Assembly (NCBI RefSeq): GCF_964204645.1
Contig: NC_134032.1
Coordinates: 5,444,275 to 5,508,274, forward strand
DNA from: Tubulanus polymorphus
Lineage: Eukaryota > Animalia > Nemertea
Direction of reading: 5' to 3'
Length of the DNA: 64,000 nucleotides
In this document: piece after piece, positions 1,820-61,188 of the stretch
How the letters are laid out: each line of letters opens with the position of its first letter
Position numbering within the stretch: position 1 is the first letter of the stretch
Translations under genes and position numbers: made by a program
The notes under the pieces: generated by a model
Told to the model about the DNA's origin: nothing
The model's input: only the letters and a program-made list of their open reading frames with translations
Database searches by the model: none

Positions 1820-2225
1820 AGTAATAGGGGTAATAGGCTTTCATATCAAAGGTTTAATGATCGAGTTCATTAATAACATATATTAAAAGTAATTAAAAAA
1901 CTATAATATATTTTCATAACCGCGTGCATTTCAGTTGAATAATAGAATAATTATTATCATTTGAATATATTTGATTATTTGAATTTGTGTATTGTAATTA
2001 AATCAATTGGTCGCGGAGCGGAGCGGTAGCGAAGTGGAGCGACCAATTGATTTAATACAATATGCTTTTTATATTATTGATATCTTAGAATAAATATTTA
2101 GTTTTGATATAAAATGCACGCGGTTATGAAAATATATTATAGTTTTTTAATTACTTTTAATATTTTGTTTTTTAATGGGCTCGACCGTTCGACCTTTGGT
2201 ATGAAAGCCTATTACCCCTATTACT
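1820..2225. repeat. Terminal imperfect palindrome (~406 bp) of copy D
   Basis: agtaataggggtaataggctttc ... gaaagcctattacccctattact. Inner arms ttttcataaccgcgtgcattt/aaatgcacgcggttatgaaaa and aaatcaattggtcgc/gcgaccaattgattt. Confidence 0.92.
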
Positions 2226-3375
2226 GATAACTGTTTCGCGAGAAATTTAGATAACCGGTATGTAGGAGAATTACAATTGGAGACTATAGGGCGCAGTGGA
2301 ACATTATCTTTATGAATTTTAGGCAATCCATAGATATATGGTAAAGAGGGAAGACGTGAATGGAACTTATTCAGAGTTTCTTTAGCGGAGGGGAAACGTT
2401 TAATAATATCCGAAAGACTTCTGTTGAAATTAGTTTGCATACGAGGAAGAGGATTCGATTTAAGTTTCTTATAAACACCAGGATTATCCAAGAGAGATTG
2501 CATTTTAACATTATAATTATCCAGATCTAAAATCACAATCTTGCCACCTTTAATCAGCCTTAGATATTTTAATAGTCTTTAACTTCCGTAGTTCTTGGAG
2601 GGCGAGCCGAAATCGACGAGGTAGATATTCAAAAAGGTTCCTGTTGAGTTGATCGCATATAGCCTGTAGATTCATGAATATAAAGTTATAGTCCAAACTG
2701 TTCGGAGATGATTTGCGATATTCCAATTGGGTGACAAAGTCTAAAACATGTTTATCTTGATGAGGAAGAGAAAAATTCAAACCGTAGCCGAGAAGTTGAC
2801 ACTGAGTAGAAGATAACGTGGTTGAAGACAAATTTACTATGTTTTCGGTGTTGCTAAATCTAGTCCAAGGGCTGGAATCAATGAGTTTATTTAGTTGGTT
2901 GGTAAGATCCACGGACTTTCTGTGCTGATGATATTTTCCAGAGCCTTGAACAATAGTGGAGAGCGATTTCCAGAGGAATAGGTCCGGTACGTGTGACTTC
3001 AAATAATTTTGAGATTGACGGAATTTGTAGAACTGATAGTTACAGTCTTCCTTAGCACGATCTATAGCGAATTTGAGTTGCTTGTTAGCTTCGGGTGGAA
3101 ACGCAGAGCTGGAGTCGTATTTCCAAATCCAAGAAAGTGATCGCGGAACCACTTTTTCGGCATAACACTCCTGAAGGAACTTGACTTTACTTTTAGCAGT
3201 CCTGGATTTGATATAGCATTTCTCATAATTTCGGAAGCTAGCGACGAGGTACGGGAACGTGAAGAAGAAGAATTTTAATACGATATTTCGATCCGTGGGT
3301 AGCATGATCACGATAGGTAAAACACAATATCCGTGTTGACGCGATGAGGAGAGAATCCCACAATGATAATAAAAA
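2226..3375 (-). mobile_element. Penelope-like element, 5' half (ORF from ATG 3305; +1 frameshift near 2550), cut by a Polinton insertion at GTTATC
   Basis: ORFs 2550-3485 and 2147-2536 match the plus-strand PLE ORF up to KFLAKQLS. The 5' leader ttttattatcattgtgggattctctcctcatc is repeated at the PLE 3' ends. Confidence 0.9.
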
Positions 3376-3489: not shown

Positions 3490-5124
3490 GTGATTTTAGA
3501 TCTGGATAATTATAATGTTAAAATGCAATCTCTCTTGGATAATCCTGGTGTTTATAAGAAACTTAAATCGAATCCTCTTCCTCGTATGCAAGCTAATTTC
3601 AACAGAAGTCTTTCGGATATTATTAAACGTTTCCCGTCCGCTAAAGAAACTCTGAATAAGTTCCATTCACGTCTTCCCTCTTTACCATATATCTATGGAT
3701 TGCCTAAAATTCATAAAGATAATGTTCCACTGCGCCCTATAGTCTCCAATTGTAATTCTCCTACATACCGGTTATCTAAATTTCTCGCGAAACAGTTATC
3801 TCCGGTGCTCGGTTCGTTCTCTCCGTCGCACCTTCGCCATAATCAACACTTACTTGAACGTATTAAGAATATTATCCCTGGCAACGACAAATTTATATCA
3901 TTTGATGTTACTTCCCTTTTTACCAATGTTCCTCTTGGACCTACTCTTGATTTCTTAAAACGCAGATTACCATTACTTAACATTAACTTCGGCATTCCTA
4001 CGGATTGTATCATCGACCTTATCTCTATTTGTACGACGGACTCCTTTTTTGAATTCAACAATTGTTTTTACGAACAGACATTCGGTATCGCTATGGGAAA
4101 TCCTCTAAGTCCTATTCTAGCTAATTTATTCCTAGAACATGTTGAATCTGAAATATTGCCTCTTTACACTGATATTCACCCTAAAATCTGGCTCAGATAT
4201 GTTGACGATGTTCTGGCTTTGGTTCCCTTTGACTTCAATGTTGATAACTTTCTTATATATTTAAACTCCCTTTACCCGTCTCTGGCTTTTACGTATGAAT
4301 GGGAATCTAATAGTAAAATACCTTTTCTGGATGTTTTGATTTTTAACTGTGGATCCTTTTTGAAATTCGCGGTTTATAGGAAACCTACCAACGCTGAATC
4401 CTACCTCCATTACTTCTCTTTTACTTCTCCGGATATTAAACTCGGTTTAGCTCAAGGATTATTTCTTCGCGCTTTGAGAATTTGCGACCCCTCATTTCTA
4501 CCCGATGAAATTCACCATATTAACCAATCTCTCAAAAAACTTGCCTACCCCGATTTCCTATTGAAAAAAGCTCTACTTAAAGCTCGTACTACGCATTTTA
4601 GAAATAACAACCTTAGAACTCCTACGTTGGCTACCGATAAACAGCCTATCATTGTACCGTATGTACCTTTCCTCGAGAATTCTAAAGTTTCTCTTCGGTC
4701 ACTAAATAAACAACTCATCTTTAAATACAATAATAAACTTAGTAACATATTGATTAACAACAAACCGAAAACCGAATCCCTAAACTGTGGAATTTATAAA
4801 ATACCTTGTAAAGTTTGCGACAAAGTATATATAGGAGAAACAGGTCGGAATCTTAATCAACGCATAAAAGAGCATAAATTAGATGTAAAAAACTTTAAAC
4901 CTGAAAGCGGAGTTGCTAGTCATGTTTTTCAGACTTCACACAATTTTGATTTTGCTAATGCTGAATTAGTTTACCCTTGCAGCGATAAAACTAGAAGACA
5001 TATTTTGGAATCTGCATTAATTATTGAAAATTCGAACAACGTTGTAAACCTCAACAATGGTTTTTCCCCCCATAATAAACTTATATCAAAATTCCTCTGT
5101 AAACTGGTTAAACTCAACACTTGA
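3490..5124 (+). CDS. Penelope-type reverse transcriptase + GIY-YIG endonuclease (N-terminally truncated)
   Basis: YGLPKIHK, PLRPIVS, SFDVTSLFT, GIAMGNPLS, RYVDD, FLDV, GIYKIPC-x2-C-x3-YIGETGR. Confidence 0.96.
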   Translation: MILDLDNYNVKMQSLLDNPGVYKKLKSNPLPRMQANFNRSLSDIIKRFPSAKETLNKFHSRLPSLPYIYGLPKIHKDNVPLRPIVSNCNSPTYRLSKFLAKQLSPVLGSFSPSHLRHNQHLLERIKNIIPGNDKFISFDVTSLFTNVPLGPTLDFLKRRLPLLNINFGIPTDCIIDLISICTTDSFFEFNNCFYEQTFGIAMGNPLSPILANLFLEHVESEILPLYTDIHPKIWLRYVDDVLALVPFDFNVDNFLIYLNSLYPSLAFTYEWESNSKIPFLDVLIFNCGSFLKFAVYRKPTNAESYLHYFSFTSPDIKLGLAQGLFLRALRICDPSFLPDEIHHINQSLKKLAYPDFLLKKALLKARTTHFRNNNLRTPTLATDKQPIIVPYVPFLENSKVSLRSLNKQLIFKYNNKLSNILINNKPKTESLNCGIYKIPCKVCDKVYIGETGRNLNQRIKEHKLDVKNFKPESGVASHVFQTSHNFDFANAELVYPCSDKTRRHILESALIIENSNNVVNLNNGFSPHNKLISKFLCKLVKLNT

Positions 5125-5552: not shown

Positions 5553-7248
5553 ATTGAGACAAATAAGTTTCTCGGTTGGGCAGCCGCGGATATCTACCGG
5601 AAGTGTTCCGGTTCGATATTTCGAGGTTTCTTTGAATTTTGGAGTGATATTGAAATCCGGTAAATACCAGCGGTAGATTGTGAAAACCCATCGCATGATA
5701 TTTGTATTACTTAATCAACGAAAAGCGTCGGGGCCGCGCCAGGAGTTTTCGTGATTCAAGTAGCGCAATAGCCTACTTCTTCGTGTTCGTCCACCTCAAT
5801 TTTCACTCCGCCGATCTCTGACACGGCTCTGTCCCCGTCGGCGCTGTGAGTGTGATTGCACTTTCGTACCACCAAAATTTTTTATTTCTATATCAGGGAG
5901 GTCTGGAGAATAAAAAAGTCAAAATTTGGATATCACATAGGCCTGATTTCATCGAATAAGTCGACCATGGTCGTTACGTTTCCGTACTTATTACAACCTA
6001 AAACCGTCTGAACAATTTTGTCACAACCAACATTTCGTTTACAGAAATCAGGTGTTCACGTGAATCCGCGGTATCGTCTACTGTTTTACTTCCGGGTTTT
6101 ATTTTAAGATTTAAAATTGTATTTCAAGATCGATTTCTATGAAGTCTTTAGTTGATTTGGTGTTTGGGAGGAATTTTTATTTGCTCTACAGAAAATTCAT
6201 CCTTGACAATTGCGCAAGGTTCGCGAAAAAAGGTTTTACCAAATCGGGTGTATGACCTTGATATGCTAATTAGCCATGTGCCCGAATTGCAAATTCAATC
6301 AAATTTTATTCTGCCAAAAAATGTTAAATACAATTCGCTTTCCGAGAGTTAATGGTATGCTGCATGGAACAAAGTTGTTTTGAGATGGGTCTTGAAGCTA
6401 TTGAGGTCGAGAGATAACCATCTAGATAGTTCGTGAGAGTTCCAAAGTTTTGAAGACGCTTCAAGGTAATGTCTTGATATTTGTTTTATACGTGTATCTA
6501 CCCTAGACACATCTTCAGGCCAAAAACTGGCCCTGTCAGATTCAAGATGGCCGACTGGCAACCATTGTTGTTCGCCAAAATCAGCACTTTTTACACATTT
6601 TTGAAGTTTTCGAGGGAAATTTTGAAGACACTTTTATCAATAACCTTGATCATTCGTATATATTTGTATCCCCCGAGGGCCCATCGGCATGAGAAAAATT
6701 GAGTCGATCGGACTCAAGATGGCCGTACTGTGACCTTTTTTGTTCCCAAAAATGTCAATTTTGGCCTGAATTCTGAGTACTATAGCTTTCTAATGGTGCG
6801 CCATGTTTCATTGCAATTTGTAATGGGTATTCTTTGGAACGGGATCTTTTATATCCGAGAGGGTATTTTTGACCAGGCAATTATGACGCACTTGGCAGCT
6901 ATCTTGGGGTCATCAGTACTCATTCGTAGGTGGGAAAAAAGTTTTTCCACATCATAATTGATACTTAAGCATATTTTGCTACTATAATCAATTGGAAAGT
7001 TGTAGCTCATGACATGTTCTATGATCGAGGTGAGTTGGTTTTTTTTATGGCCACCAGGGGGCGTTGAACAATACAATAACTTAGTATTTCTATATTACAT
7101 TCGTTCCTGCTGTCTGTGTTAACACACGATTTTACTATGTAAATGATATTGAGCAGGGAGTGTATATTGATAAATATAACCCACAGATTACATCATTTAT
7201 AAAAAGCAAATCTGACAGACTGGCCATTGTGCCCCTTGGGGCTCTTGT
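5553..7248 (+). mobile_element. Helentron-type non-autonomous element (HINE/DINE-like), 3' part
   Basis: 3' end gactggcc...gccccttggggc-tcttgttt (subTIR, short hairpin, T-run). The matching 5' part is at 58616-58965. Confidence 0.65.
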
Positions 7249-7512
7249 TTAGTATTTTTTATTTGTGATTTAAAGTATTCTTTTTTGAAAAGAAAATATT
7301 AAAAATATAATAGAATTCACTAGCTAGTTGAAGTTATTGTTTTTTAATATATTTTATTTAGGGTCGAGCTCGTAAAAAAATGAAAATAACAATAATTTCC
7401 AGTTGAATTAGGAGTGTGCGCGACTAATTTAACTGGAAATTATTGTTATTTTCATTTTTTTACGAGCTCGACCCTTCGACCTTTGGCCTGAAAGCCCATT
7501 ACCCCTATTACT
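7249..7512 (-). mobile_element. Left end of Polinton copy C (internally deleted), nested in the MSKK gene of copy E
   Basis: Terminus at 7512 with hairpin 7361-7512, joined directly to sequence matching about 8066-8175. It interrupts the ORF at KWVGY. Confidence 0.85.
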
Positions 7513-10733: not shown

Positions 10734-10922
10734 AGTAATAGGGGTAATGGGCTTTCAGGTTAAAGGTTGAAGGGGCGAGTGAGTAAAAAATGAAAATAAC
10801 AATAATTTACAGTTGAATTAGGAGTGTGCGCGACTAATTCAACTGTAAATTATTGTTATTTTCATTTTTTTACGAGCTCGACCCTTCGACCTTTGATCTG
10901 AAAGCCCATTACCCCTATTACT
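10734..10922. repeat. Terminal palindrome (~189 bp) of copy E
   Basis: Arms aaaataacaataatttacagttgaattag / ctaattcaactgtaaattattgttatttt around the loop gagtgtgcgcga. Confidence 0.92.
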
Positions 10923-12085: not shown

Positions 12086-14696
12086 ATTAGAATTTAAAAA
12101 AATATGATAACAAGAATAGAGTGCCATTTGTAATATATGGTGACTTCGAGTCACTCAATAAAGAATTAACTGATCAAGATATTAATATATTATAAAAGAA
12201 AGATATTAAATTCTAATGAAAATGATGTAATTGATTATTTAGATCCTCTAATAACAAATACTATTAAAACGATTCATCAAAGAGCTGCAGCTTTCGGGTT
12301 ATATGTAAAATCTGATTATGCAGAACTAATTAAAAGTGAATATTGTAATTATAGAAATGAAAATGTTATCAATCATTTTTGTGACTTATCAATTGAATAT
12401 GAAATGAAGTTTAGTAAACTATTAGATACAAATATAGAAATTATAATGACAGAAGAAGATAAAGAAGAATTTGATTTAGCAGATGAATGTTATTATTGTG
12501 AAAAGATATTTAATCTAAAAGATAAAAAAGTTAGAGACCATGATCAATTGAATGGTAAATTTAGAGGTGCAGCACATGAGAATTGTAACTTACAAGTTAA
12601 AAAAATTAACTTTGTTCCAGTAATATTTCATAATTTATCAGGATATGATGCACATTTATTTATCAAACAGTTATGTCATAAAATAGAAGAAATCATTAAT
12701 GAAATTGAAAGATTAAATTCAAATAGATCAAAAAATGTTGCTAAAATACCAACATATAAATTTAAAATGTTAGCTAAAACATCTGAGAATTATATATCTT
12801 TCCAATTTGGGTGTGTAAGATTCATAGACTCGTATAGATTTTTAAGCAGTTCATTAGATAATTTATCAAAATCATTAGTTGATGATGAATTACAAATATT
12901 GAAACAACACTATCCAAATAATGATGATTTTCAATTAATGAGATATAAAGGAGCAATTCCATATAGTTCTATAAATCGCATAATGATTTCAATATAACTG
13001 AATTATTAAAAGAACAATTCTATGATGAATTAAAAAATGAATATATATGTTGAAGTCTATATATAAGATGAAGTCAATAATAGAACATTGAATATTTGGA
13101 ATCATTTTGGAATGAAAAATCATGGACAATTAGTAGATTTATATTTAAAATCAGATGTATTATAACTGACTGATATATTTGAAAGGTTAGGGTTAGGGTT
13201 AGGGATGTAAATCTAAAATATTTTAATACTGATCCATGTCATTGTTATTCTTGTCCAGGATAACTTGGGATTGTGGATTGAAATTTACAGATATAAAAAG
13301 GGATTTGTTAACAAATAGACCAATTATTATTATTTGAAAGAAGAGGAGGCGTTTCAGGTGTATTAGGTGATAGATATTTCAATGTAAATGATAACCCTGG
13401 TATAAGTTATTATATATAGACGCAAATAATCTATATGGTTGGGCAATGATGGAGCTTTTGCCTTACGGAGTATTTCAAATAACTGAAGTTCTACAACATG
13501 AAAATAATGATAAATTTTGATTAGAAGAAAAGAATTCTAGATATTGCAGATGATTCAGATACTGGTTACTTTTTCTTTGTAGATTTAGAATATCATGAAA
13601 ACATTAAATTTAAATCTAGATATCTAGCATACTGTCCCGATCATAAAACAGTAACACATGAAGAATTATCAAATTATCAAAATAGGATTAAACCTGAAGA
13701 TCATATTCATACAGAAAAGTTAATGGTAACTCAGGAAGATGAATCAAATTATGTAGTGCATAAAAAGTGAATGTTAAAATTCTATTTGAATCAAGGAATG
13801 ATCCTTAAAAAAGTACATAGATATATTTCATTCAGTCAATCTAGATGGTTATAAAAATATATAGATTTTAACACCAAACAGAGAACTAAAGCTAAAACTG
13901 ATTTCGAAAAAGATTTCTTCAAGTTAATGAATAATGAATTCTATGGTAAGACATGTGAAAATATTAGAAATAGAAATGATATTGAGTTAGTTAGTAATGG
14001 AAAACGAATTAGACATTTACAAACATATCCTAAATTTATTGGTAACAGAATACTTGATGAAAATTTTGCTGCAGTTAAAATGAGAACTTCTATGAAATTT
14101 CATAAACCAATTTATGTTGGAGCATCAGTTTTAGAAATATCAAAGTTATTAATGTATGAATTTTACAATAACGTATTACAACCCTATTTTGGAGAAAAGC
14201 ATGTAGAAATCTTATATTTTGATCCAGATTCTTACATATTAAAGATAAAAACTAATAATATAACAGATGATTTAAAAACATCATTTTGATTTCAGTAATT
14301 ATCCAAAAGGTCATGAATTGTTTAACAATGATAATAAAAAGGTGCCCGGTATATTCAAAGATGAATTAGGAGGTGAAGAAATGATAGCGTTCATTGGAAT
14401 TTGATCTAAAATGTATTCATATAAAACCAAAACTCATGAAGGTAAAAAGTTAAAAGGTATTACCAGAAGTGTAGTAGAAATAAACATTCATTTCGAAGAT
14501 TACACCAATTGTATATTCAATGAAGAAGTTAGAAAACATAAGATGAAATGTTTAAGATCAGAAGATCATGAAATGTTTATTGAAGAGATAGAGAAAATAA
14601 GTTTGAATCCTTTCGATGATAAATGATATATTTTAGATGATGGTATACACACAGTTGCTTATGGTTGTAATTTAGATGAATATCTAAAATTTAAAA
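12086..14696 (+). pseudogene. pPolB: Protein-primed DNA polymerase B pseudogene
   Basis: YGDFES, VRDHDQLNGKFRGAAH, FHNLSGYD, MNNEFYGK and YFDPDS, with many stops and frameshifts. Confidence 0.92.
13187..13204 (+). repeat. (TTAGGG)3 inserted in the pPolB pseudogene
   Basis: gaaagg-ttagggttagggttaggg-atgtaaa, versus gaaaggtttagagatgtaaa in the intact gene. Confidence 0.85.
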
Positions 14697-15585
14697 TAAG
14701 TAACGAGACGAGTAGTACTGTATAGGTTAACTATTTATTTGACGTACGAGCTTTCGCTTCTAATGAATAGAAGCTTCATCAGGTGAATGAGTATAGTCAA
14801 TGGAAAAACAACAGTATATATAGGTAGACTGACACTAATTACAGAGAACTGAGTGAGAAGAGTAATTACAAATAAATGACGAGTGACATGATAATTAATA
14901 ACTAAGTGAGTGAGTAGATAATTAATTAATTAAGGAACAACAGACTAAAACAAATCAAAGAAAAATAAATCAAAATGAAACTATATCAAAGAAAAATAAA
15001 CAGAAGGAATCTAAAAGCAACGAATAACAAGAGATGGAATTCCGATACAATGAATAACATACAAAATTACGTTCTGTAGTGGTACACGAATCCTAGATCG
15101 CGATTGAGGCCAAGATTAACAGTATCACCACGTTGAATGAGTTTTTGTTCCATGATTTCGCGCGAATGTTTATTAAAAGTGTTCATTTTATGTAACGCGG
15201 TCACTTTAAGGTTGCTGATGGTATGGTTCGGAAGATTGAAATGTTCGCCGATAGGTTTATCCATTTTCTTGTGTCTGATATCAAATTTGTGACCGTTTAA
15301 GCGTTGACGTAATGTTTGTCCAGTTTCTCCGATGTAGATGGTTCCAGGGCAGATATCGCATGTGATGGCATAAACAACGTTGGTGGAGTCGCATGTGTAG
15401 GGTCCAGTGACTTTGAGTTGTTGGTTGTTGGCTGCGGTGACCGTCGGTGATGAGTTGATGAGAGGGCAGAGTTGACATCTAGATTTGTTGCAGGGGCGCG
15501 TGTATTTGTTATCTGAGTCGTCTTCGGCGGATAGTTTGCTGCTGATGAGGAGTTTTCTTAGGTTAGCTGGTTGGCGATATTCTAC
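14697..15585 (-). mobile_element. Penelope-like element (second family), 3' fragment
   Basis: GIY-YIG remnant (C-x2-C...YIGETGQ...HFNLPNH). Flanked by a ~18-bp duplication gaatat(c)taaaatttaaaa of the pPolB 3' end. Confidence 0.8.
14746..14784 (-). ncRNA. Hammerhead ribozyme (PLE)
   Basis: CTGATGA-a-gcttcta/tagaagc-GAAAGCTC; stem I is weak. Confidence 0.65.
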
Positions 15586-33579: not shown

Positions 33580-34029
33580 TGTCATAAACTGGAGACAGCA
33601 TGCCTTTGCTTGCCTGAGCATCGAATTGATAGTGTTTATCACTGTATTAACAATAATTTGACATCTGTTGCTCAGTTGGCAAACTGACTGCCACCTCTCT
33701 GTTTTCACGGGAATTCTAATTAGTGCATTTCTATGTGGACCTTCTACCCCCCGACCTTTGCTAGGACTTGACATGTATCCAATCAGGACAAGGGATTTCT
33801 GGATGGGTCCAAGTCTGGAGTGATCAGGGGACATAAACCGTTTCGGTCCTACTGGTCATTCTCGACTTGGTCGGAAAATAAAGCAGTTCGTCATCGAGAA
33901 ATCATCTTGTGCCTTATACGTGTGTTATTATTTTAGGTCGATATTTTAGGTCGACTTAAGTCCGATATTTTGTAATTTCTAACTTTAAGTCCTAAATTTA
34001 CGTGCTGGATTTGTAAATAGTATGTAAAT

Positions 34030-34590
34030 GTACGATTTAATAGTATTATGATATGAAGATTCGATTAATAGTTGTAACGTTGTTGCGCTGATGCAACATG
34101 TATAGTTACGTTTTAGATGTACGATTTAACAGTTTTACGATATGAAGATTCGATTAATAGTTGTAACGTTGTTGCGCTGATGCAACATATATAGTTACGT
34201 TTAATATGCGAATTGATAGTTGTAACGTTTTTGCGCTGATGCAACATGTATAGTTACGTTTTAGATGTACGATTTAATAGTTTTATGATATGAAGATTCG
34301 ATTAATAGTTGTAACGTTGTTGCGCTGATGCAACATGTATAGTTACGTTTTAGATGTACGATTTAATAATATTATGATATTAAGATACGAGTAATAGTTG
34401 TTACGTTGTTGCCCTGATGCAACAGGTATAGTTACGTTTACGTTTAAGATACGAATTAATAGTTGTAACGTTGTTGCCCTGATGCAACAGGTATAGTTAC
34501 GTTTACGTTTAAGATACGAATTAATAGTTGTAACGTTGTTGCTTGATGGAACATGTATTGTTACGTTTAAGATGTACGGTTTAATATTAT
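34030..34590. repeat. Seven hairpin-forming tandem units (59-89 bp) inside the putative LTR
   Basis: Core tagttgtaacgttgttgcsctgatgcaacakgtatagttacgttt at about 34069, 34158, 34217, 34306, 34395, 34460 and 34525. Confidence 0.88.
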
Positions 34591-34747
34591 TACCGGTATG
34601 ATATTGTATTTTATGAAACGATTCTCGACTTGGTCGCAAAATAAAGCAGTTCATCATCTTGTGCCTTATACCTGTGTTATTTTTTTAGATCGTTCTACGT
34701 GACTAGTTCCCGGCTAACACCACAGACAAATTCAACAGTGTTATAAT

Positions 34748-38557: not shown

Positions 38558-38743
38558 AGTAATAGGGATAATGGGCTTTCATACCAAAGGTCGAAGGGTC
38601 GAGCTCGTAAAAAAATGAAAATAATAATTTACAGTTGAATTAGTCGCGCACACTCCTAATTCAACTGTAAATTATTATTATTTTCATTTTTTACTCACTC
38701 GCCCCTTCAACCTTTGATACGAAAGCCTATTATCCCTATTACT
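38558..38743. repeat. Left terminal palindrome (~186 bp)
   Basis: agtaatagggataat...attatccctattact with the loop tcgcgcacactc. Confidence 0.92.
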
Positions 38744-38823
38744 CTTAAAATATTCACATAAATGAATAACATTTAAATCATTGAACTTCTAAAATCAATT
38801 TTAATAAAAAATATAGTATTAAA

Positions 38824-39075
38824 ATGGAAGCAAATAAGTACTACTGCCCAACATGTAATATCGATATAGATAAATCCCAAAAAGCAAGACACAATAAAAC
38901 TATAACACATTTAGAGAATAAATTGAAACTAGAATATTTACAGTTATATTCAGAACAGTTAACAAAGGGAAAGAAATTTATTGAATTATGGAATAATGAT
39001 CCAAATAATGAACAATACGTTGAGGAATTTATTATCAAGGAATCGAAAGAACTTATCAAAAGCAGCGAGGAATGA
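38824..39075 (+). CDS. Small zinc-finger protein (TIR-encoded N-terminus + HNH-derived tail)
   Basis: CPTC...H...H; the tail LQLYSEQLTKGKKFIELWN resembles the HNH C-terminus. Confidence 0.7.
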   Translation: MEANKYYCPTCNIDIDKSQKARHNKTITHLENKLKLEYLQLYSEQLTKGKKFIELWNNDPNNEQYVEEFIIKESKELIKSSEE

Positions 39076-42294: not shown

Positions 42295-43383
42295 ATGATG
42301 AAAAAAGAACAATATTTAAGAGAGTTATATTATAACCCAGAAAGTGAAGTATCATATTCAAGTGTTTCGGAATTATGGGATAAAATTAAATCTGATAAAG
42401 AAAAAATAAAATATAGTGAATTAAAATCATGGTTACAAAATCAACCCACATATCAAATTCATAAAAAGATGGATAAAAAATATTTAACAAGAAAAGTTAT
42501 GGTTTCATATATCGATCAGCAATGGCAAGCAGATTTAATTGACATGAAAAACTAAGAAGAATATAACAAAGGATATTTTTGGATACTGAATGTTATAGAT
42601 ATATTCAGTAGATACGCATGGAGTATCTCGATTAAAAATAAAACCGGTATAGAAGTAACAAATGCTTTTAAATCTATATTTAAAGAAGCTATTCCAGATA
42701 AAATACAATTTGATGAAGGTAAAGAATTTTATAACAAACATTTTAAAAAACTATTATCTGATAACGATGTAGAATATTTTTCAACACATTCAGATAAAAA
42801 AGCATCTGTTATAGAAAGATTTAATAAAACATTGAAAACTAGAATGTGGAAATATTTCACCGCTAATGAAACATATAAATATATCGATGTGTTAGATGAT
42901 TTAGTTAAAGGTTATAATAATTCTAAACATAGTTCTATAAATATGAAACCTATACAAGCTAGAAAAGAAGAAAATTCAGAAATAGTTTGGAATAATTTAT
43001 ATGGAGCATTTGTTACACATGATTTTGGAGAACCTAAATTTAAAATAGGACAACATGTTAGAATTTCTAAATATCGAAAAACATTTTATAAAGGTTATAC
43101 CCCTAATTTTACAGAAGAAATATTTAAAATTAAAAAGATAATATTAACTAAACCATTTGTTTATAAATTGTTTGATTTAAAAGATGAAGAAATATTAGGT
43201 TATTTTTATGAACAAGAATTATCATTAGTACCAAATCCAGATGAAATAGAATACAAAATAGAAAAGGTATCGAAAACAAAAACTCTTAAAGGAAAAAAGT
43301 ATTCTTTGGTGAAATATAAAGGATATGATGATAAATTTAATGAATGGATTTTATCTAGTAAAATTAAAAGAATAAATGAATAA
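42295..43383 (+). pseudogene. INT: rve/DDE integrase with a C-terminal chromodomain; in-frame nonsense at 42553-42555
   Basis: WQADL, FDEGKEF, ERFNKT, YN-x3-HSSI, YKIEK...VKYKGY...NEW. TTA>TAA relative to copy C. Confidence 0.92.
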
Positions 43384-43990
43384 AGATTTATTTATATTTG
43401 AACCGCATAATATGTTAATAACTGGAGTAACCAATTGTGGTAAAACACATTTCATATTAGATTTATTAGTAACTATTTATAAAAATCATTTTGATAATAT
43501 AATATTATTCTGTCCTACATATGAAATGAATAAAACATATAATAGAGATATAGTTTTTAAAGATAAAAAGTTTATTATATTAAATTCTAAAACAGTAAAA
43601 GAAAATTTAGATAATTGTATAAAAATAACAATTGATATTCATAAAGGATCAAATACATTATTTATTATTGATGATTGCGCAAATTTACATGATTCTAAAA
43701 TTAGAGAAAGTGAGTTATGTTATTTAGCTTTCTCTGGTAGACATTTTGGGATAACAACTTGGGTTTTAAATCAGAAATATAATTCAATTGTGAAAGATTT
43801 TAGAGAGAATATAAGATTTCTAGTTTTATTCTACAACAAAGATAAAAAATCTATGCAACAATCATTGGAAGAAAATCAAATTATACCTACTGAATTACAT
43901 GATGAATATATGAATAAATTAAAAAATAATAAAGGATCCAAATTACTTATGAGATTACAATTTCCATATGAATATAAATTTATAAAATAA
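43376..43990 (+). CDS. A32/FtsK-like DNA packaging ATPase
   Basis: Walker A GVTNCGKT, Walker B FIIDD, SGRH arginine finger, NQ motif. Confidence 0.92.
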   Translation: MNKDLFIFEPHNMLITGVTNCGKTHFILDLLVTIYKNHFDNIILFCPTYEMNKTYNRDIVFKDKKFIILNSKTVKENLDNCIKITIDIHKGSNTLFIIDDCANLHDSKIRESELCYLAFSGRHFGITTWVLNQKYNSIVKDFRENIRFLVLFYNKDKKSMQQSLEENQIIPTELHDEYMNKLKNNKGSKLLMRLQFPYEYKFIK

Positions 43991-44006
43991 AATCCTAATT
44001 CAAAAT

Positions 44007-44567
44007 ATTATAGAATTCGCTGTATATTGATGGATGAGTGGATGAATTGGATGAATTGGATGAGTGGATGAATGGAAGAGTGAAATAATATATAATTTAC
44101 ATATGTTTTTTATTTTTAAAACAGTAAGAGTTTGATTTGAAGATGTCATATAATAATAAATATATTTTTATAAAATAATAAAATGACAGATAATAAATGT
44201 CATATAATAATAAATATATTTTTATAAAATAATAAATAATAAAATGATAAATAATAAAATGATAAATAATAAATATATTTTTATAAAATAATAAATAATA
44301 AAATGATAAATAATAAATATCATATAATAATAAATAATAAATATCATATAATAATAAATAATAAATGTCATATAATAATAAATATATATTGTGTTAAATT
44401 TAATAAAGAATAAAAATATTATATTTATACTCATACTATTCTTCCAATTTATGTGTTAAAAAGTAAAATATATATATTATTATACTCATTCACTCTTCCA
44501 CTCATCCAATTCATCCAACTCTTCCAACTCATCCATTCATCCATCAATATACAGTGAATTCTATAAT
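44007..44567. repeat. Central inverted repeat enclosing AT-rich tandem repeats, between the convergent gene arms
   Basis: attatagaattcgctgtatattgatggatga... / ...tcatccatcaatatacagtgaattctataat. Confidence 0.88.
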
Positions 44568-44571
44568 CTTT

Positions 44572-45639
44572 TTAATTTTCATTTTCATATTTTTCTTTAA
44601 GCTTATTATATTCTAAATATATATCCCTTTCCATTTTATTTGGTATAATTCCTGAACGATTCCCAAGTTTATATTTATAGAATTTTGCTCTTGAAAATAT
44701 TTTTGGAATATAATTTTCGATTTCAGTTTTAGATGGATGTTTATTTAAAAATTCTCTAAAATCATCATATTTAAGTTCAAATAACTTCATTGCATAACTT
44801 ACATTTGGTTTAAAGTTATCTAACTTTTTCAATATGGTAACTATATCATTACTCGAGAAATAATCTATAAATGTTTTTCTATACCACCGATAATCTAATA
44901 TATTATTATTATTAAATTTTGAATTTATAACTCTTGGATCTTCTATTACATTATCTGTACCAATATGTTTAATTGAGTATTTATGATTCAATTGTTTATC
45001 ATATATTACATATTCTTTACATTTTTCACACCAAGATTTAAATACTTTTATTGCATGGGCTGAATCATTTCCACTTTTTGTTTTTAATTTATAATGTTTT
45101 GCCCAATTAGCCTTTGTTATACATTCATTACAGAAAGCACAATAATTCTGATCCTCTTTACATTTATCTTTATATATATTAGCATATGTTTTTACTAATT
45201 GTAAAATATGTTCATCTTTTTTGATGTGTAATAAATAATCATTATAATTATCAAAATCTTCTTCACAATACATACATCTGATGTTATCTTTTGGTTGAAC
45301 ATTTGATTTTTCTATTTTAGGTTCAATATTATGTTCTATTTTAGGTTCAATATTATCATCATTCGATGTAGAAGGTATAACATTATCTTCTATTTTAGGT
45401 TCAATATTATTTTCTATTTTAGTTTCAATATTATCTTTTATTTTAGGTTCAATATTATCTTCTTTTTTTATATCAATATTATTATTACGTTCAATTAAAT
45501 ATTCTTTGTATTGATTTAATTCATTTAATAAAAATGTTCCAATATATTCATTTATTCTTTTATAAGGTATTACATAATACAAATCATCATTGATTTCTTT
45601 ATCAGCTTTGATTCTTTCATATACTTTACCTCCTTCCAT
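44572..45639 (-). CDS. Multi-zinc-finger protein with IEPKIEDN repeats
   Basis: CMYC...H...H, CAFC...H, CEKC...H...H; 24-bp tandem units. Confidence 0.8.
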   Translation of the reverse strand: MEGGKVYERIKADKEINDDLYYVIPYKRINEYIGTFLLNELNQYKEYLIERNNNIDIKKEDNIEPKIKDNIETKIENNIEPKIEDNVIPSTSNDDNIEPKIEHNIEPKIEKSNVQPKDNIRCMYCEEDFDNYNDYLLHIKKDEHILQLVKTYANIYKDKCKEDQNYCAFCNECITKANWAKHYKLKTKSGNDSAHAIKVFKSWCEKCKEYVIYDKQLNHKYSIKHIGTDNVIEDPRVINSKFNNNNILDYRWYRKTFIDYFSSNDIVTILKKLDNFKPNVSYAMKLFELKYDDFREFLNKHPSKTEIENYIPKIFSRAKFYKYKLGNRSGIIPNKMERDIYLEYNKLKEKYENEN

Positions 45640-45671: not shown

Positions 45672-46919
45672 TTAATACATAACACTATCTAATTGTGAAT
45701 TTACAATATTTAATTGCGCGTCAGATATAATATAAATGTGCATTTTAAAATTTTTAATTCCTTTTTTCTTTGTCATGAATAATTGTATTCCATCTTTAGT
45801 GTTTTGTAGTTTTTTTCCAGAACCATGTAATGAATTATCTTCAGTTGTTCTAAAATCTAACCATAATGCATATTTATTACCGGTATAATAATCAATTTGA
45901 TTAATGTTACAATTTTCAAATGATTTTATTTTTTCATTCATAAAATGTTTTCTAATTTCTACCCATTGATCTATCATTCTCATTCCTTGACAAAATATTT
46001 TATTCGCTATTCCTTCGATAGTTATTTCTACTTTTGTTATTTCAGGATTATAATAATTGTCAACATTTATTGCACCATTAGTATACGTTCCAATGGTAAA
46101 AAATATTAATATACCTTTAATAGATCTTCTAGGGAAGTTAATATTCTCATTTATTATTTCATCATTTGCATTAATAGTTACAGTTTTAAATTTATCAATA
46201 TAATCATATAATAATGAAAATCCTTGATTGTATTGAGTTTGAATTGTGCTAGCAATATTTTCATCAGTTACTGTATCATATTCTAAACATATATTCGATA
46301 ATTTATAACTCATATCTTTAACAACGCTAGATAATACAATTTCATTTACAGGAGCAAATGTTATCTCAAATATAACGTCTTCTTGAATTGCGTATTTATA
46401 TAAAGGTGCATTATTATTTATCAATTCAAAGTCTAATGGAATTTTATATTTGCTTCCATATATACTTTTTATCAATTTATCTACATCATTTGTTAATATT
46501 GCGCTATTAGCTTCTGATCTTAATTTATTTTGGTTTTCTGATTGGATGCCTTGAAATATCATATTATTTCTATTTTCTTTAGTTAACCATAAATCTTTAT
46601 AATGCATAAATAAATTATAATCATCTAATGAGAAAACTGTTTCCGGACCAATCTTTATTGTTAACTTTTTAATCAAATATCTTCCAACATTATCAACGAC
46701 ATAATTATTATTATTACCGGTTACTTTTATATCAGCTGATAAATAAATACTATTTGGAACATAAAAAGTATTTTGTGTTAATCTCGGAATTGTAACGTAT
46801 AAAGTTTCATCGGGATTAATATTTGAAGGGTTATGAGTAATTATATGATGTGATCTTTCTGCTTTAATAGCATTAGATATTCTATGATTCTTAGAAGGAT
46901 TGATATAACTCCCACTCAT
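45672..46919 (-). CDS. Putative major capsid protein (double jelly-roll)
   Basis: 415-aa beta-rich protein conserved in all copies. Size and context fit a Polinton MCP; recognised by pattern, not by search. Confidence 0.75.
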   Translation of the reverse strand: MSGSYINPSKNHRISNAIKAERSHHIITHNPSNINPDETLYVTIPRLTQNTFYVPNSIYLSADIKVTGNNNNYVVDNVGRYLIKKLTIKIGPETVFSLDDYNLFMHYKDLWLTKENRNNMIFQGIQSENQNKLRSEANSAILTNDVDKLIKSIYGSKYKIPLDFELINNNAPLYKYAIQEDVIFEITFAPVNEIVLSSVVKDMSYKLSNICLEYDTVTDENIASTIQTQYNQGFSLLYDYIDKFKTVTINANDEIINENINFPRRSIKGILIFFTIGTYTNGAINVDNYYNPEITKVEITIEGIANKIFCQGMRMIDQWVEIRKHFMNEKIKSFENCNINQIDYYTGNKYALWLDFRTTEDNSLHGSGKKLQNTKDGIQLFMTKKKGIKNFKMHIYIISDAQLNIVNSQLDSVMY

Positions 46920-52457: not shown

Positions 52458-55400
52458 TTAACACGTTAGAATCCTTTTCATAATCTCATTTTCTTTTGTT
52501 TCTTCTCTTTTGAATTTTATATATTCATCTAAATTGCAACCATAGGCGACTGTGTGGATTCCATCATCTAAAATATATCTTTTATCATCAAATGGATTCA
52601 AACTTATCTTCTCTATCTCTTCAATATACATTTCATGATCTTCAGATCTTAAACATTTCATCTTATGTTTTCTAACTTCTTCATTAAATATACAATTGAT
52701 GTAATCTTTAAAATGAATATTCTTTTCAACAACGCTTTTGGTAATTCCTTTTAACTTTTTAGCTTCATGAGTTTTGGTTTTATATGAATACATTTTAGAT
52801 CTAATACCAATGAACTCTATCATTTCTTCACCACCTAATTCATCTTTGAATTTACCGGGAACTTTTTTATTATCATTGCTAAACAATTCATGATCTTTAG
52901 GATAGTTACTAAAATCAAAATGATGTTTTAATGTTTTTAAATCATCAGTTATGTTATCAGTTTTTATCTTTAATATATAACTGTCAGTATCAAAGTATAG
53001 AATTTCTATGTGTTTTTCTCCAAAATGAGGTTGTAGTATATTATAGTAAAATTTATACATTAGGAATTTTGATAATTCTAAAACTGCAGCTCCAACATAA
53101 ATCGGTTTGTTAAATTTCATACTTGTTCTTCTCATTTTAACTGCAGCTAAATTTTCATCAAATATTCTGTTACCTATAAACTTAGGATATGATTGTAAAT
53201 GCCTTATCCTTTTACCATTACTAACTAAATCAATATCATTTCTATTTCTAATATTTTCACAAGTTTTTCCATAGAATACATTATTCATTAACTTAAAAAA
53301 ATCTTTTTCAAAATCAGTTTTAGATTTAGTTCTCTGTGTAGTATTAAAATCTATATATTTTTCTAACCATTTAGATTGACTGAATGAAATATATCTATGT
53401 ACTTTTTTTAATATCATTCCTTGATTCAAATAAAACTTCAACATTCTATAATGCACAACGTAATTATATTTATCTTCTTGAGTTACCATTAACTTTTCTG
53501 TATGAATATGATTATCGGGTTTAATTCTTTTTTGATAATTTGATAATTCTTCATGTTTAACAGTTTTATGTTCGGGACAATATGCTAGATTTCTAGATTT
53601 GAATTTAATATTTTCAGGGTATTCTAAATCTACAACGAAGAAGTAACCAATATCTGAATCATCTGCAATATCTAGGATTCTTTTCTTCCAATCAAATTTA
53701 TCAATTTGTAAAACTTCAGTTATTTCAAACATCCCATAAGGTTGTGGTTCCATCATTGCCCAACCATAAAGATTATTTGCATCTATGTACAATAATTTAT
53801 ATCCAGGATTATCATTTACATTGAAATATCTATCACCTAATACACCTGAAACACCTCCTCTTATAGATTTTTCAAATAATAGTAATTGATCTATATTTGT
53901 TAACAAATCCATTTTTATATCTGTAAATTTTAATCCACAATCCCATGTTAATCCTGGTGATGAATAACAATGACATGGATCAATGTTAAAATATTTTAGG
54001 TTTACATCTCTAAACCTTTCGAATATATCGGTTAATAATAATACATCTGATTTTAAATATAAATCTACTAATTGACCATGATTTTCTATTTTGAAATGAT
54101 TCCAAATATTCAATGTTCTATTGTAGACTTCATCTTTAACATATTCATTTTTTAATTCATCATAAAATTGTTCTTTTAATAATTCAGTTATTTTAAAATC
54201 ATTATGATTTTTATAGAAAGAATATGGAATCGCTCCTTTATATCTCATTAATTGGAAATCATCATTATTTGGGTAATATTCTTTTAATATCTTTAATTCA
54301 TCATCAACTAATGATTTTGATAAGTTATCTAATGAACTATTTAAAAATCTATATGAATCTATAAATCTTAGACAACCAAATTGGAATGATATATAATTCT
54401 CAGATGTTTTAGCTAACATTCTAAATTTATAAGTTGGTATTTTATCTTTTGATCTATTTGAATTTAATATTTCTATTTCATTATTGATTTCTTCTATTTT
54501 ATGACATAACTGTTTGATAAATAAATGCGCGTCATACCCCGATAAATTGTGAAATATAATGGGGACAAAATTGATTTTCTTTGCTTGCAAATTACAATTC
54601 TCATGCGCAGCGCCTCTAAACTTTCCATTCAAATGATCATGGTCTCTTACTTTTTTATCTTTATAATTAAATATCTTTTCACAATAATAACATTTATCTG
54701 CAAACGCAAATTCTTCTTTATTTTCTTCTGTCATAATTATTTCTTTATTTGTATTCAATAATTTACTAAATCTTATTTCATATTCAATTAATAAGTCACA
54801 AAAATGATTGATAACATTTTCATTTCTATAATTATAATATTCACTTTCAATTAGTTCTGGATAATCAGATTTAATATATAACCCGAAAGCTGCAGCTGAT
54901 TGATGAATCTTTTTAATAGTATTTGTTTTTGGTGGTTCTTCTGAATAATCACTTTCATTAGAATTTAATTTCTTTCTTTTATAATATATTTCTTTTCTAT
55001 CTTTATCTGTTAATTCTTTATTTAATGATTCAAAATCTCCATATATTACAAATGGTACTTTATTTTTGTAATCATATTTTTTGAATTCTAATATTTTATC
55101 TTTTTCATTTGGTAAAACTAATTTACAATAATCATGATTATCACATAGTTGTTTATGATTTAATAATGTACTTTCATTACTAAATTTATGTAAACATTTT
55201 CTACATAGATATATTTTATTATGGTGATCACTTTCTGTTCTAAAAAATAAATCTATTTGTTTAATCCACATATAATGATTCTCATAATATAGTATATCTA
55301 TAACATCGTTTGAATCATAATCTTTTGATAGATATAAAGGTTCTAATGTATAATGTTTTATGTTGTTACCTTTTGTATTTGGTAATTTGATTAAATCAAA

Positions 55401-56492
55401 TACATTTATCTTTATATTATTATCTCTTTCTATTTTTGGAATATTTTTAATTCTAACAGGATACTTATCTATCTTATAATTATTTTCAAATGGTTTATAA
55501 TGAGTTAATCTAAAACTATGTTGTTTATAATCTTCAACTGGGTGTGAGCAACTTATAATTGTCCATAGAAAACATTTATCATCTTCATTTTGTACATTTA
55601 TTACAGCATTAGTTTTAAATGGTAGTTTAATATAACTTGATGCTTCAATATCTGGTTCTTTCTAATATGATAAATTATTTTCATCAATTGGTTTTGATTT
55701 AGTTAACTTATTATATTTTGTGTTATAAACATGTAAAGTTATAAATATTATCTCATCAAATATTAAACCAGATCCTTCAAAATATTTCTCTTCTATTTTA
55801 GTTTTTATTTCATTATAACATTTATTTAATTTATCATCTATATGTTGTTTAGATATAATATGTTGTGAATGAGAATTTATATTATATATTGGTTTATCTT
55901 CAGATTTTATAAACTTTACTTTAACTGATATACTTATTTTAGGATATTCAACATCTGTAATTATTTTTATTATTTATTTCATATTTTCTAAATGTTTTTT
56001 ATTTTCTTCTATTGTTTTTCCTTTATGAAATTTAAACTCGATAGCTGCTGGACCAATATCACTTTTAAATGCTTCGGTTATCTCTATATCTTTTTTATTA
56101 TCTAATGAATTAATATAATTTCTTACATCTTCCATACATGGTCTTTTATTGTTTAATTTATTTTTTATTCTTTTAATTGTCTTCTGTTTCTTATCGTTAT
56201 CATTATCAAAATAATCTTCACCTAAAATATCATTATTCTTATTTCTAATATGACTTATAGATTTTAAATGTTCTTTATAATATCTTTTATCACTGAATGA
56301 TTGATTACATATATCACATTTGTATGTTTCTTTTTCATTCCTTAATTCTTCTAATTTAGTTTCTAATATATCATCTTCATATTCTAGTTTCAATTTATTC
56401 TCTAAATGTGTTCTAGTTTTATTGTGTCTTGCTTTTTGGGATTTATCTATATCGATATTACATGTTGGGCAGTAGTATTTATTTGCTTCCAT
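52458..56492 (-). pseudogene. pPolB: Protein-primed DNA polymerase B with N-terminal zinc fingers/terminal-protein region and an endonuclease-VII-like Zn insert; disrupted between about 55975 and 55660
   Basis: Exonuclease motifs YGDFES, FHNLSGYD, YLKSD; polymerase motifs YIDANNLYG, KLMNNVFYGK, YFDTDS; CYYC...RDHDH...GAAH..CN. Confidence 0.95.
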
Positions 56493-56572
56493 TTTAATAC
56501 TAAATTTTTTATTAAAATTGATTTTAGAAGTTCAATGATTTAAATGTTATTCATTTATATGAATATTTTAAG

Positions 56573-56840
56573 AGTAATAGGGGTAATAGGCTTTCAAGCT
56601 AAAGGTTGAACGGGCGGGTGAGTAAAAAATGAAAAACATAAAAATAATAACAATTTCTACTTTAATTAGGAGTGAAACTCATAAAAATGAAAAATTAATT
56701 CGAGCGTGTGAGAATTAATTTTTCATTTTTATGAGTTTCGCGAGTAATTCAAGTAGAAATTGTAATTATTTTTATGTTTTTCATTTTTTACGAGCTCGAC
56801 CGTTCGACCTTTGGCTTGAAAGCCTATTACCCCTATTACT
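56573..56840. repeat. Right terminal palindrome (~268 bp)
   Basis: Same outer arms as the other ends; core gaaactcataaaaatgaaaaattaatt / aattaatttttcatttttatgagtttc. Confidence 0.92.
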
Positions 56841-58602
56841 GTTATCTCCGGTGCTCGGTTCGTTCTCTCCGTCGCACCTTCGCCATAATCAACACTTACT
56901 TGAACGTATTAAGAATATTATCCCTGGCAACGACAAATTTATATCATTTGATGTTACTTCCCTTTTTACCAATGTTCCTCTTGGACCTACTCTTGATTTC
57001 TTAAAACGCAGATTACCATCACTTAACATTAACTTCGGCATTCCTACGGATTGTATCATCGACCTTATCTCTATTTGCACGACGGACTCCTTTTTTGAAT
57101 TCAACAATTGTTTTTACGAACAGACATTCGGTATCGCTATGGGAAATCCTCTAAGTCCTATTCTAGCTAATTTATTCCTAGAAAATGTTGAATCTGAAAT
57201 ATTGCCTCTTTACACTGATATTCACCCTAAAATCTGGCTCAGATATGTTGACGATGTTCTGGCTTTGGTTCCCTTTGACTTCAATGTTGATAACTTTCTT
57301 ATATATTTAAACTCCCTTTACCCGTCTCTGGCTTTTACGTATGAATGGGAATCTAATAGTAAAATACCTTTTCTGGATGTGGATCCTTTTTGAAATTCGC
57401 GGTTTATAGGAAACCTACCAACGCTGAATCCTACCTCCATTACTTCTCTTTTACTTCTCCGGATATTAAACTCGGTTTAGCTCAAGGATTATTTCTTCGC
57501 GCTTTGAGAATTTGCGACCCCTCATTTCTACCCGATGAAATTCACCATATTAACCAATCTCTCAAAAACTTGCCTACCCCGATTTCCTATTGAAAAAAGC
57601 TCTACTTAAAGCTCGTACTACGCATTTTAGAAATAACAACCTTAGAACTCCTACGTTGGCTACCGATAAACAGCCTATCATTGTACCGTATGTACCTTTC
57701 CTCGAGAATTCTAAAGTTTCTCTTCGGTCACTAAATAAACAACTCATCTTTAAATACAATAATAAACTTAGTAACATATTGATTAACAACAAACCGAAAA
57801 CCGAATCCCTAAACTGTGGAATTTATAAAATACCTTGTAAAGTTTGCGACAAAGTATATATAGGAGAAACAGGACGGAATCTTAATCAACGCATAAAAGA
57901 GCATAAATTAGATGTAAAAAACTTTAAACCTGAAAGCGGAGTTGCTAGTCATGTTTTTCAGACTTCACACAATTTTGATTTTGCTAATGCTGAATTAGTT
58001 TACCCTTGCAGCGATAAAACTAGAAGACATATTTTGGAATCTGCATTAATTATTGAAAATTCGAACAACGTTGTAAACCTTAACAATGGTTTTTCCCCCC
58101 ATAATAAACTTATATCAAAATTTCTCTGTAAACTGGTTAAACTCAACACTTGATTTCCCCTTTGATTATTTGTTATTTGTTCTCTCATCAATTTCGTCTC
58201 TGACTTAACTTGTATTCACCTTTGTTTTAATTTAAGTGCCCCTTAGTTTGTCTTTCTTTTTACTACTGACTTTAAGTTTCATTTATATTTATACTCACTA
58301 TTGTTGTTTATAATCACCCCTTAGTTTGCTTCCCTTTAATCTATTTTAGCGTGTAACTGTTTCTACGTTAATTTTCCTTTAGTTTGTATCATCTCTGATT
58401 ACTTGAATTAGTCTCTTTGTCCCTGGATTGTATATATATCTCATAATTTCTGTAGTATCTCATTATTCCTGAAGATGACTATTAGGATATAGTCGAAACG
58501 TTGAATAAACTACTATCTCGAAGTTTCATTTTCGGACTTTTTATTATCATTGTGGGATTCTCTCCTCATCGCGTCAACACGGATATTGTGTTTTACCTAT
58601 CG
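56841..58602 (+). mobile_element. Penelope-like element, 3' half (frameshifted RT-EN + pLTR); continuation of 2226-3375
   Basis: Starts gttatctccggtgctcgg, exactly where the 5' half stops; near-identical to 3795-5539. Confidence 0.92.
58463..58508 (+). ncRNA. Hammerhead ribozyme (PLE pLTR)
   Basis: Identical to 5434-5479. Confidence 0.88.
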
Positions 58603-60058: not shown

Positions 60059-61188
60059 ATGAAAAAAGAACAATATTTAAGAGATTTATATTATAACCCA
60101 GAAAGTGAAGTATCATATTCTAACGTTTCAGAATTATGGAATAAAATTAAATCTGATAATGAAAATGGTAATGGTGCCGTACGGCACCCACACGGTGGTA
60201 TAAAATATAGTGAATTGAAATCATGGTTAAAAATCAACCAACAAATCAAATCCACAAGAAAATGGATAAAACTTATTTAACAAGAAAAGTTATGGTTTCA
60301 TATATCGATCAACAATGGCAAGCAGATTTAATTGAAATGAAGAACTTAGAAGAATACAACAAAGGATATTTCTGGATATTAAATGTTATAGACATATTCA
60401 GTCGATACGCATGGTCAATTCCAATCAAAAATAAAACTGGTATAGAAGTGACAAATGCTTTAAAATCAATATTTAAAGAAGCTATTCCAGATAAGATACA
60501 ATTTGATGAAGGTAAGGAATTCTATAACAAACATTTCAAAAAACTATTATCTGATAACGATGTAAAATATTTTTCAACACATTCAGATAAAAAAGCATCT
60601 ATTATAGAAAGATTTAATAAAACATTGAAATCTAGAATGTGGAAATATTTTACTGCTAATGAAACATATATTTATATCGATGAGTCTATAAATATATTAG
60701 ATGATTTAGTGAAAGGTTATAATAATTCTAAACATAGTTCTATAAATATGAAACCTATACAAGCTAGAAAAGAAGATAATTCGGAAATAGTTTGGAATAA
60801 TTTATATGGAGCATTTGTTACACATGATTTCGGTGAACCTAAATTTAAAATTGGACAACACGTTAGAATATCTAAATATAGAAAAACATTTTATAAAGGT
60901 TATACCCCAAATTTTACAGAAGAAATATTTAAAATTAAAAAGATAATATTAACTAAACCTTTTGTTTATAAACTAGAAGATCTAAAAGATGAAGAAATAT
61001 TAGGTTATTTCTATGAACAAGAATTATCACTTGTACCAAATCCAGATGAAATAGAATACAAAATAGAAAAAGTATTGAAAACAAAAACTCTTAAAGGAAA
61101 AAAGTATTCTTTGGTGAAATATAAAGGATACGATGATAAATTTAATGAATGGATTTTATCTAGTAAAATTAAAAGAATAAATGAATAA
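60059..61188 (+). pseudogene. INT: rve integrase + chromodomain, frameshift near 60230
   Basis: DDE motifs intact in 60223-61188; N-terminus in 60059-60280. Confidence 0.9.

Follow-up and report, generated by a model that had tools for sequence, protein, structure and literature searches.

The window, a 64,000-nucleotide stretch of the genome of the nemertean Tubulanus polymorphus, holds nested, partly scrambled Polinton copies clustered in an AT-rich eukaryotic genome. A Pfam scan of its 26 ORFs of at least 150 aa found a pPolB with an EndoVII insert, an rve integrase, an A32-like ATPase and a weak capsid match, as well as Penelope-like RT/GIY-YIG elements. The principal features, with the five Polinton ends labelled A to E, are as follows.

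1820..2225, minus strand: end D, a 406-bp terminal palindrome of a left-type end with its terminus at 2225; the interior matches the left TIR
2226..2231, minus strand: TSD copy adjoining end D (GTTATC on this strand)
7361..7512, minus strand: end E, a rearranged end in which outer-arm sequence has taken the place of the inner arm from arm position 38 on, followed by internal Polinton sequence
10734..10922, minus strand: end A, a 189-bp terminal palindrome with a GA..GA tip at 10822-10833
38558..38743, plus strand: end B, a 186-bp terminal palindrome and left end, where 2225 reads pass into unrelated flanks
38744..38937, plus strand: inner, non-palindromic part of the left TIR (38651-38937 against 56674-56379, 91%)
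43376..43990, plus strand: A32-like packaging ATPase (Pox_A32 E 1e-12)
45672..46919, minus strand: capsid candidate (Capsid_N E 0.006, below the cut-off; its structural look-alikes are viral capsid clusters, a lead only)
52458..56492, minus strand: pPolB frame with zinc fingers, terminal-protein domain, vOTU, exonuclease with EndoVII/HNH insert, and polymerase
56379..56572, minus strand: inner part of the right TIR, containing the pPolB start at 56492 (same TIR comparison, 91%)
56573..56840, minus strand: end C, a 268-bp terminal palindrome and right end with a GA..GA tip at 56702-56711
56841..56846, plus strand: TSD copy GTTATC adjoining end C
60223..61188, plus strand: rve integrase with chromodomain (rve E 1e-10)

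The palindrome-bearing element is confirmed as a high-copy Polinton with a protein-primed polymerase. Several hallmarks of Polintons/Mavericks are present: a protein-primed PolB (DNA_pol_B_2 E 6.5e-15), a retroviral-like integrase (rve E 1e-10, with a second copy at about 42832-43383), a packaging ATPase and, with weaker support, a capsid protein, and TIRs (38558-38937 / 56379-56840) with a TSD of 6 bp (GTTATC, ends D and C). A maturation protease had no Pfam match among the 26 ORFs, the copies being decayed. Named relatives of the window pPolB are insects, at only 33-40% identity. Further relatives were gathered in scans with a 21-sequence pPolB alignment, which gave 33, 80 and 75 loci (L numbers below), the metagenome set being the best 80 of at least 590. 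The window pPolB aligns to an intact relative in one frame, with two in-frame stops in the N-terminal part, and carries an EGSG loop (55778), a vOTU Cys motif (55589) and the EndoVII/HNH insert (54644). The EGSG loop and vOTU motif are also present in L034, L203 and others, and the TP serine and the vOTU Cys/His are invariant in 55/55 aligned relatives; judged from its sequences, the polymerase family retains the terminal-protein serine and the protease residues. In a predicted model of the L034 N-terminus (pLDDT 83), the serine sits in the loop that links helix 2 to the final strand, and the fold matches that of the Y-family little finger, a placement and fold described thus for Polinton terminal proteins (bioRxiv 10.1101/2024.03.18.585575). 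A link between EndoVII and cruciforms was set aside as not specific, the EndoVII motif also occurring in L027 and L174, where no terminal hairpin was detected. Elsewhere in the window, an imperfect internal palindrome of ~600 bp (43989-44585, 71%), its arms carrying GGATGA/TCATCC repeats, separates convergent gene blocks, with palindromes of like size in L053 (2719-3242) and L143 (17765-18336), and tandemly arrayed units of 89/59/65 bp lie at 33936-34601.

The original observation that the five ends are themselves imperfect palindromes was borne out for each of them: the DNA folding energies of the ends at 1820, 7361, 10734, 38558 and 56573 are -121.0, -56.1, -83.0, -61.8 and -113.8 kcal/mol, respectively, corresponding to z-scores of -27, -14, -23, -15 and -25 when each end is compared with 40 dinucleotide shuffles. 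As was also proposed, the terminal decamer recurs in inverted form inside four of the five ends and is absent from 7361-7512, where the change from ttacagtt/aactgtaa to ttccagtt/aactggaa is likewise present. The inner arm of this end is indeed a copy of its outer arm, but the match had been called exact, and one stem mismatch and the tip differ. Similarly, the three proposed core types occur in the expected sizes (406, 186-189 and 268 bp), but they are related rather than independent; the core of end C is the 187-type with a second hairpin, a truncated duplicate of this end's inner hairpin, inserted into the tip. End E is likely a fold-back product. In the intact ends A, B, C and D the inner arm continues directly into the same inner TIR sequence (4/4).

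Ends B and C (38558 and 56840) were considered as partners of one insertion, and rejected because their flanks are TCTACC and GTTATC, respectively. Ends D (1820-2225) and C (56573-56840) share the 6-bp TSD GTTATC within a Penelope-like copy, and one insertion therefore bore the 406-bp core at one end and the 268-bp core at the other; in the uninterrupted Penelope-like copy GTTATC is single, at 3795-3800. The D/C insertion has since been rearranged, or is misassembled. The Penelope-like RT/GIY-YIG element lies at 3490-5124 of the window, and a second copy, 98-99% identical and split by the Polinton, at 2226-2629 and 56841-58568; the left half of the split copy is now, together with end D, inverted and 54 kb away. 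A preference of Penelope for Polinton ends was rejected, as it was the Polinton that had inserted into the Penelope copy.

To sample the genome-wide population of ends, a portion of one raw-read run (about 12%) was analysed. In it 2225 reads exit the element precisely at the outer AGT (38557/38558) and continue into unrelated flanks (agreement 0.34), so that 38558 is the exact terminus. Read depth is about 7 in the flank of this locus and about 1700-1900 in the TIR, which suggests that the genome holds, as a rough order of magnitude, a few hundred ends. Across the inner junction depth is continuous (2302 vs 2377), and the palindrome therefore belongs to nearly all ends rather than to a separate MITE. 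Insertion of a hairpin MITE at the end was accordingly rejected, the inner side also joining the same TIR in all four intact ends. Forms ~90 bp shorter and several further cores are seen in the reads, and core length ranges from about 95 to 406 bp.

Flip/flop isomers of the parvovirus/poxvirus type, which the palindromes had led one to look for, failed to appear: orientation is fixed in 4/4 intact window ends, in 2/2 ends of the related element L203 and in the reads. The arm difference at position 35 has the same direction in four of four ends, and those at positions 42 and 47-49 in three of four, and none of the 40 variants listed (the smallest with 192 reads) is a flipped allele of position 35 or of 47-49. 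Loose ends at the inner junction are likewise absent from the six listed, the smallest of which has 395 reads against 2225 at the outer terminus, so the flipped share lies below about 18% and a 1:1 mixture is excluded. The tip has the common orientation in 10 of the 12 cores listed and is reversed in none. The asymmetry at position 42 is missing in 24% of inner reads, which carry the outer base, and this counts against strict conservation.

The proposed covariation between arms was confirmed. Six of arm positions 1-46 vary among ends A, B, C and D, and 19 of the 24 inner-arm bases equal the outer-arm base of the same end, more than in any other of the 24 possible pairings (P = 0.042, the lowest value attainable). 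Outer and inner allele shares in the reads agree at seven sites (43/48, 52/54, 16/19, 15/17, 38/34, 36/27 and 22/19%, unphased); an outer G>C at position 39, in 38% of reads, is unmirrored among the 40 variants listed. Some differences between outer and inner arm are kept and not corrected, namely those at positions 35, 42 and 47-49 counted above. Fold-back copying, also part of the prediction, has left products in the 7361 end, the nested 268-bp core of end C and the short forms in the reads, all of which look like the outcome of template switching. Template switching perfects quasi-palindromes neutrally, with no need of selection, so arm covariation alone is no proof of selection or function. 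The claim that end structure and not core sequence is under selection thus stands only as far as structure is conserved over core sequence; the retained strand-biased mismatches and the common tip are better evidence for function.

Read on the strand that runs 3' into the terminus, the arm mismatches are G-T in 24 cases and C-A in 3, G-A in 22 and C-T in 4, and G-G in 6 and C-C in 0, counts that come from four ends with tip columns included and are shared by descent, hence not independent. In ends A-D, four of the five in the window, this strand has an advantage in folding stability of 5.3-10.6 kcal/mol over the other, and in E the two are equal. Tandem 5'-GA-3'/3'-AG-5' pairs, a well-known stable sheared motif (PMC8163305), make up the bubble at arm positions 48-49 as well as the tips of ends A, B, C and E. 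The 24-nt tip of end D reads GGA-GC-GGA-GC-GGTA-GC-GAA-GT-GGA on the plus (3'-ending) strand, which can be read, on the model of satellite III purine zippers (PMC11014236), as two putative zippers (GGA/GGA and GGA/GAA) below a GCGNNAGC mini-hairpin of the type in PMC13037366. Altogether 16 hairpins were compared, selected by eye, several of them related, and those of L094, L021, L112 and L139 not established as termini; 14 have definable tips, of which 11 are GA..GA and none TC..TC, with D, L139 and L021 showing neither. L001-L188 contain 74 perfect stems with a length of 12 bp or more; a GA..GA tip occurs in 3 of these, all candidates, and is absent from the other 71. It was later also found in L209 and L226, and nearly so in L208. 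A GA/GAA bubble is known from MVM. The loose motif of a 6-bp stem with GA..GA is not rare alone (46 matches vs 21-28 in shuffles), and GA..GA is informative only at the tips of long stems. The variable spacer within the tip would be easier to reconcile with a strand that folds than with a site bound as duplex.

Similar ends occur in a second lineage. One complete element, L203 (G001:C67), spans about 19 kb and encodes an ATPase, an rve integrase and a pPolB 42% identical to that of the window. Each of its ends is a 159-bp hairpin that starts with ACACAC, the orientation being the same at both, and the 3'-ending strand carries the tip GA-GC-loop-GC-GA. L203 lies in an ATT microsatellite, which makes its TSD uninformative. 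A large direct internal duplication in L203 (8057-12470 and 12815-17213), including the integrase and the 3' part of pPolB, is either real or an assembly artefact. At the ends of L204, L208, L209, L071, L072, L186 and L165, those of L071 and L165 being truncated or decayed, an end's own arms are mostly 79-91% identical, and between elements identity is 37-72%. A 1-nt bulge in the inner arm lies about 20 bp from the end in 6/9 second-lineage ends. The energy gap between strands is small in this lineage (0.4-7 kcal/mol), and L094b, L021 and L186 (the last in one of its cuts) show the opposite bias. A second-lineage arm pattern gave 6 matches in viral contigs, none of them hairpin-forming, and 11 matches (9 places) in 5 genomes, of which L220, L224 and L228 are not hairpins, with 4 matches for a control pattern; the terminal 22-mer of the Polinton ends in the window had 0 matches in viral contigs.

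Hairpin ends are not universal among Polintons. L087 has a typical AGTAGT end with host flank and no hairpin; its hairpin-less TIRs (1-700 and 14600-15051) hold runs of TTAGGG telomere-like repeats. L034, the closest relative among the loci listed (79%), is cut inside pPolB and yields no end. A hairpin lies no more than 900 bp upstream of the TP domain in only 6 of the 101 loci with at least 500 bp there, a sample skewed by broken contigs and by elements whose pPolB does not lie at an end. The TIRs of L027 and L030 are without a hairpin, but start at contig ends possibly cut at one, and are therefore weak negatives. Short-read contigs probably break at hairpins, and many annotated Polinton ends may consequently be truncated. 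In L139 a 131-bp hairpin starting AGTAGTTAGGG (5613-5743) lies 150 bp upstream of an intact 1248-aa pPolB; its strand bias is alike (8.9 kcal/mol), the GA tip is absent, and a second end was looked for in L139 and not found. L139 is possibly a third lineage. Two long GA..GA-tipped hairpins lie upstream of a truncated pPolB in L094 (125-309 and 1162-1331) and are not established as termini. L203, L205, L208, L209, L139 and others are apparently eukaryotic Polinton contigs within bins labelled bacteria or archaea.

From integrated copies and short reads we infer how these ends would fold and be primed. The reading we prefer, to which we give a probability of roughly 0.45, is that the 3' strand, when displaced, folds back locally and so provides a duplex origin at which protein-primed replication starts. 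Once the element has been excised or the strand displaced, the 3' terminus would pair with the inner arm of the same end, and the fold would rebuild a double-stranded origin as a local version of the adenovirus/PRD1 panhandle. TP-primed pPolB would start on the stem and copy straight through the palindrome, and orientation would for this reason never invert. G-T and sheared G-A pairs would stabilise the fold of the 3'-ending strand, and C-A and T-C pairs would weaken the hairpin of the other strand and the cruciform in host DNA, while an occasional template switch at the stable tip would copy arm onto arm, leaving the core lengthened, shortened or nested. A local origin is the best fit because it would account at once for the strand bias, the single orientation, the retention of the TP and the debris of template switching. 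As a counterpoint, ordinary TIRs should already permit a panhandle, and L087 is without a hairpin; moreover, end D and L139 have no GA..GA tip, and the energy gap is nil in E. The panhandle on displaced strands in adenovirus and PRD1 is itself a model for which direct evidence is lacking, according to PMC11886824. That the hairpin has some single-strand function, whichever it may be, is very probable, and more secure than the choice among functions.

The folded end might instead prime itself in a rolling-hairpin-like manner, its 3'-OH priming inward; asymmetric resolution of the closed end, for which the EndoVII/HNH insert of pPolB is a possible nuclease, would then keep one orientation. Simple hairpin transfer, however, predicts the flip/flop that was not seen, and although the geometry fits, with no gap between inner arm and inner TIR and with the more stable fold on the 3'-ending strand, the invariant TP serine and vOTU residues speak against this possibility. 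Hairpin priming has been proposed for protist elements (bioRxiv 10.64898/2026.07.28.741278), and some bocaparvovirus termini occur in one form only (PMC8242256), but no Rep/HUH protein is among the Pfam matches of the 26 window ORFs scanned, and L027 and L174 possess the EndoVII motif with no terminal hairpin detected; we consider self-priming unlikely. It is likewise doubtful, if a little less so, that the hairpin is a recognition signal for excision, integration or packaging, with a protein reading the fold together with those bases in it that are unpaired or mismatched, and the hairpin base marking what would be the element-host junction on a single strand. Integron integrase reads attC, and vaccinia I1 reads telomere mismatches. 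That an rve integrase works on double-stranded ends, giving a TSD of 6 bp as observed here, counts against such a signal, as do hairpin-less Polintons (L087) and the fact that no binding protein was identified. On the other hand, the 1-nt inner-arm bulge recurs at a similar distance in six of nine second-lineage ends, an A32-like ATPase is encoded, attC shares the logic of structure over sequence with a variable tip, an extrahelical base and a purine and G-T skew favouring one strand (PMC5027507), and vaccinia hairpin mismatches are required for virion maturation (PMC8956199).

The ends could also be a neutral by-product, an inherited accidental fold-back duplication whose arms template switching keeps alike without function. 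End E, the nested core of end C and the short forms show that such accidents occur, and core length is variable; an accidental origin is also named as an alternative in bioRxiv 10.64898/2026.07.28.741278. Template switching should nevertheless erase mismatches, yet the tandem GA tip and the polarity persist in two lineages with unrelated arms, and nearly all ends retain the inner arm, as the steady depth across the inner junction indicates; a purely neutral origin is quite improbable. Beyond the local origin that we favour, we tentatively suggest, at somewhat less than even odds, that several distant pPolB-Polinton lineages share undescribed ends of this kind, a strand-specific, sheared-G-A-capped and fixed-orientation hairpin that would serve as a single-strand origin or excision signal.

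To our knowledge, neither Polinton excision nor the start of Polinton replication has ever been demonstrated. The standard Polinton model is a 2006 proposal and is so cited in bioRxiv 10.64898/2026.07.28.741278. With its conserved non-Watson-Crick tip, its strand bias and its single orientation, the terminal structure would make this question approachable with short synthetic DNA, and such tests would distinguish protein priming from hairpin priming; if several Polinton lineages do share such ends, these would give a physical handle on the exit of Polintons from the chromosome and on their replication. The suggested novelty of the ends survives in part: literature searches, with most subscription journals, Repbase and Dfam outside their scope, found nothing further on palindromic pPolB-Polinton ends or the GA tip, but terminal palindromes were already reported, in July 2026, for endogenous virophages of Halocafeteria seosinensis (subtypes 1, 2, 5 and 6) and PLV subtype 4 (bioRxiv 10.64898/2026.07.28.741278). 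As in those rve-integrating Polisuviricotina, for which hairpin priming was proposed, the palindromes here lie within the TIRs and adjoin the TSD. The Halocafeteria palindromes are short (52 nt in subtype 5) compared with 114-406 bp in the pPolB Polintons here, and favour replication genes other than pPolB, whereas the window and L203 have pPolB with conserved TP residues; the protist observation is thereby extended to pPolB elements, contrary to the suggested non-pPolB link. In the parts of the preprint consulted, nothing is said of orientation, of covariation, of a polarity of the mismatches or of a motif at the tip. New here are the non-random mismatches, the GA/AG-closed tip, and the recurrence of the same tip and polarity in a distant lineage (~42% polymerase identity).

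Canonical Polintons/Mavericks share the gene set, the TIRs, the 6-bp TSD and the TP-vOTU-polymerase layout, but here the outer part of the TIR is itself a long palindrome, which the typical relative L087 does not have. The likeness to integron attC is an analogy only and implies no homology, attC being bacterial and read by a tyrosine recombinase. With parvovirus and poxvirus telomeres the ends have in common a terminal imperfect palindrome, and in those systems too mismatches can matter (vaccinia; PMC8956199) and single-form ends exist (parvoviruses; PMC8242256); unlike them, the Polintons here integrate with a TSD and keep a terminal protein, flip/flop was not seen and a Rep nickase was not found in the window ORFs scanned. 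With adenovirus and PRD1 they would share a protein-primed start at a duplex end that a single strand has restored by pairing, as proposed in PMC11886824, but the panhandle pairs two ITRs, whereas here pairing would stay within one end. If the shared end architecture suggested above holds, it would combine protein priming of the adenovirus type with hairpin ends like those of parvoviruses.
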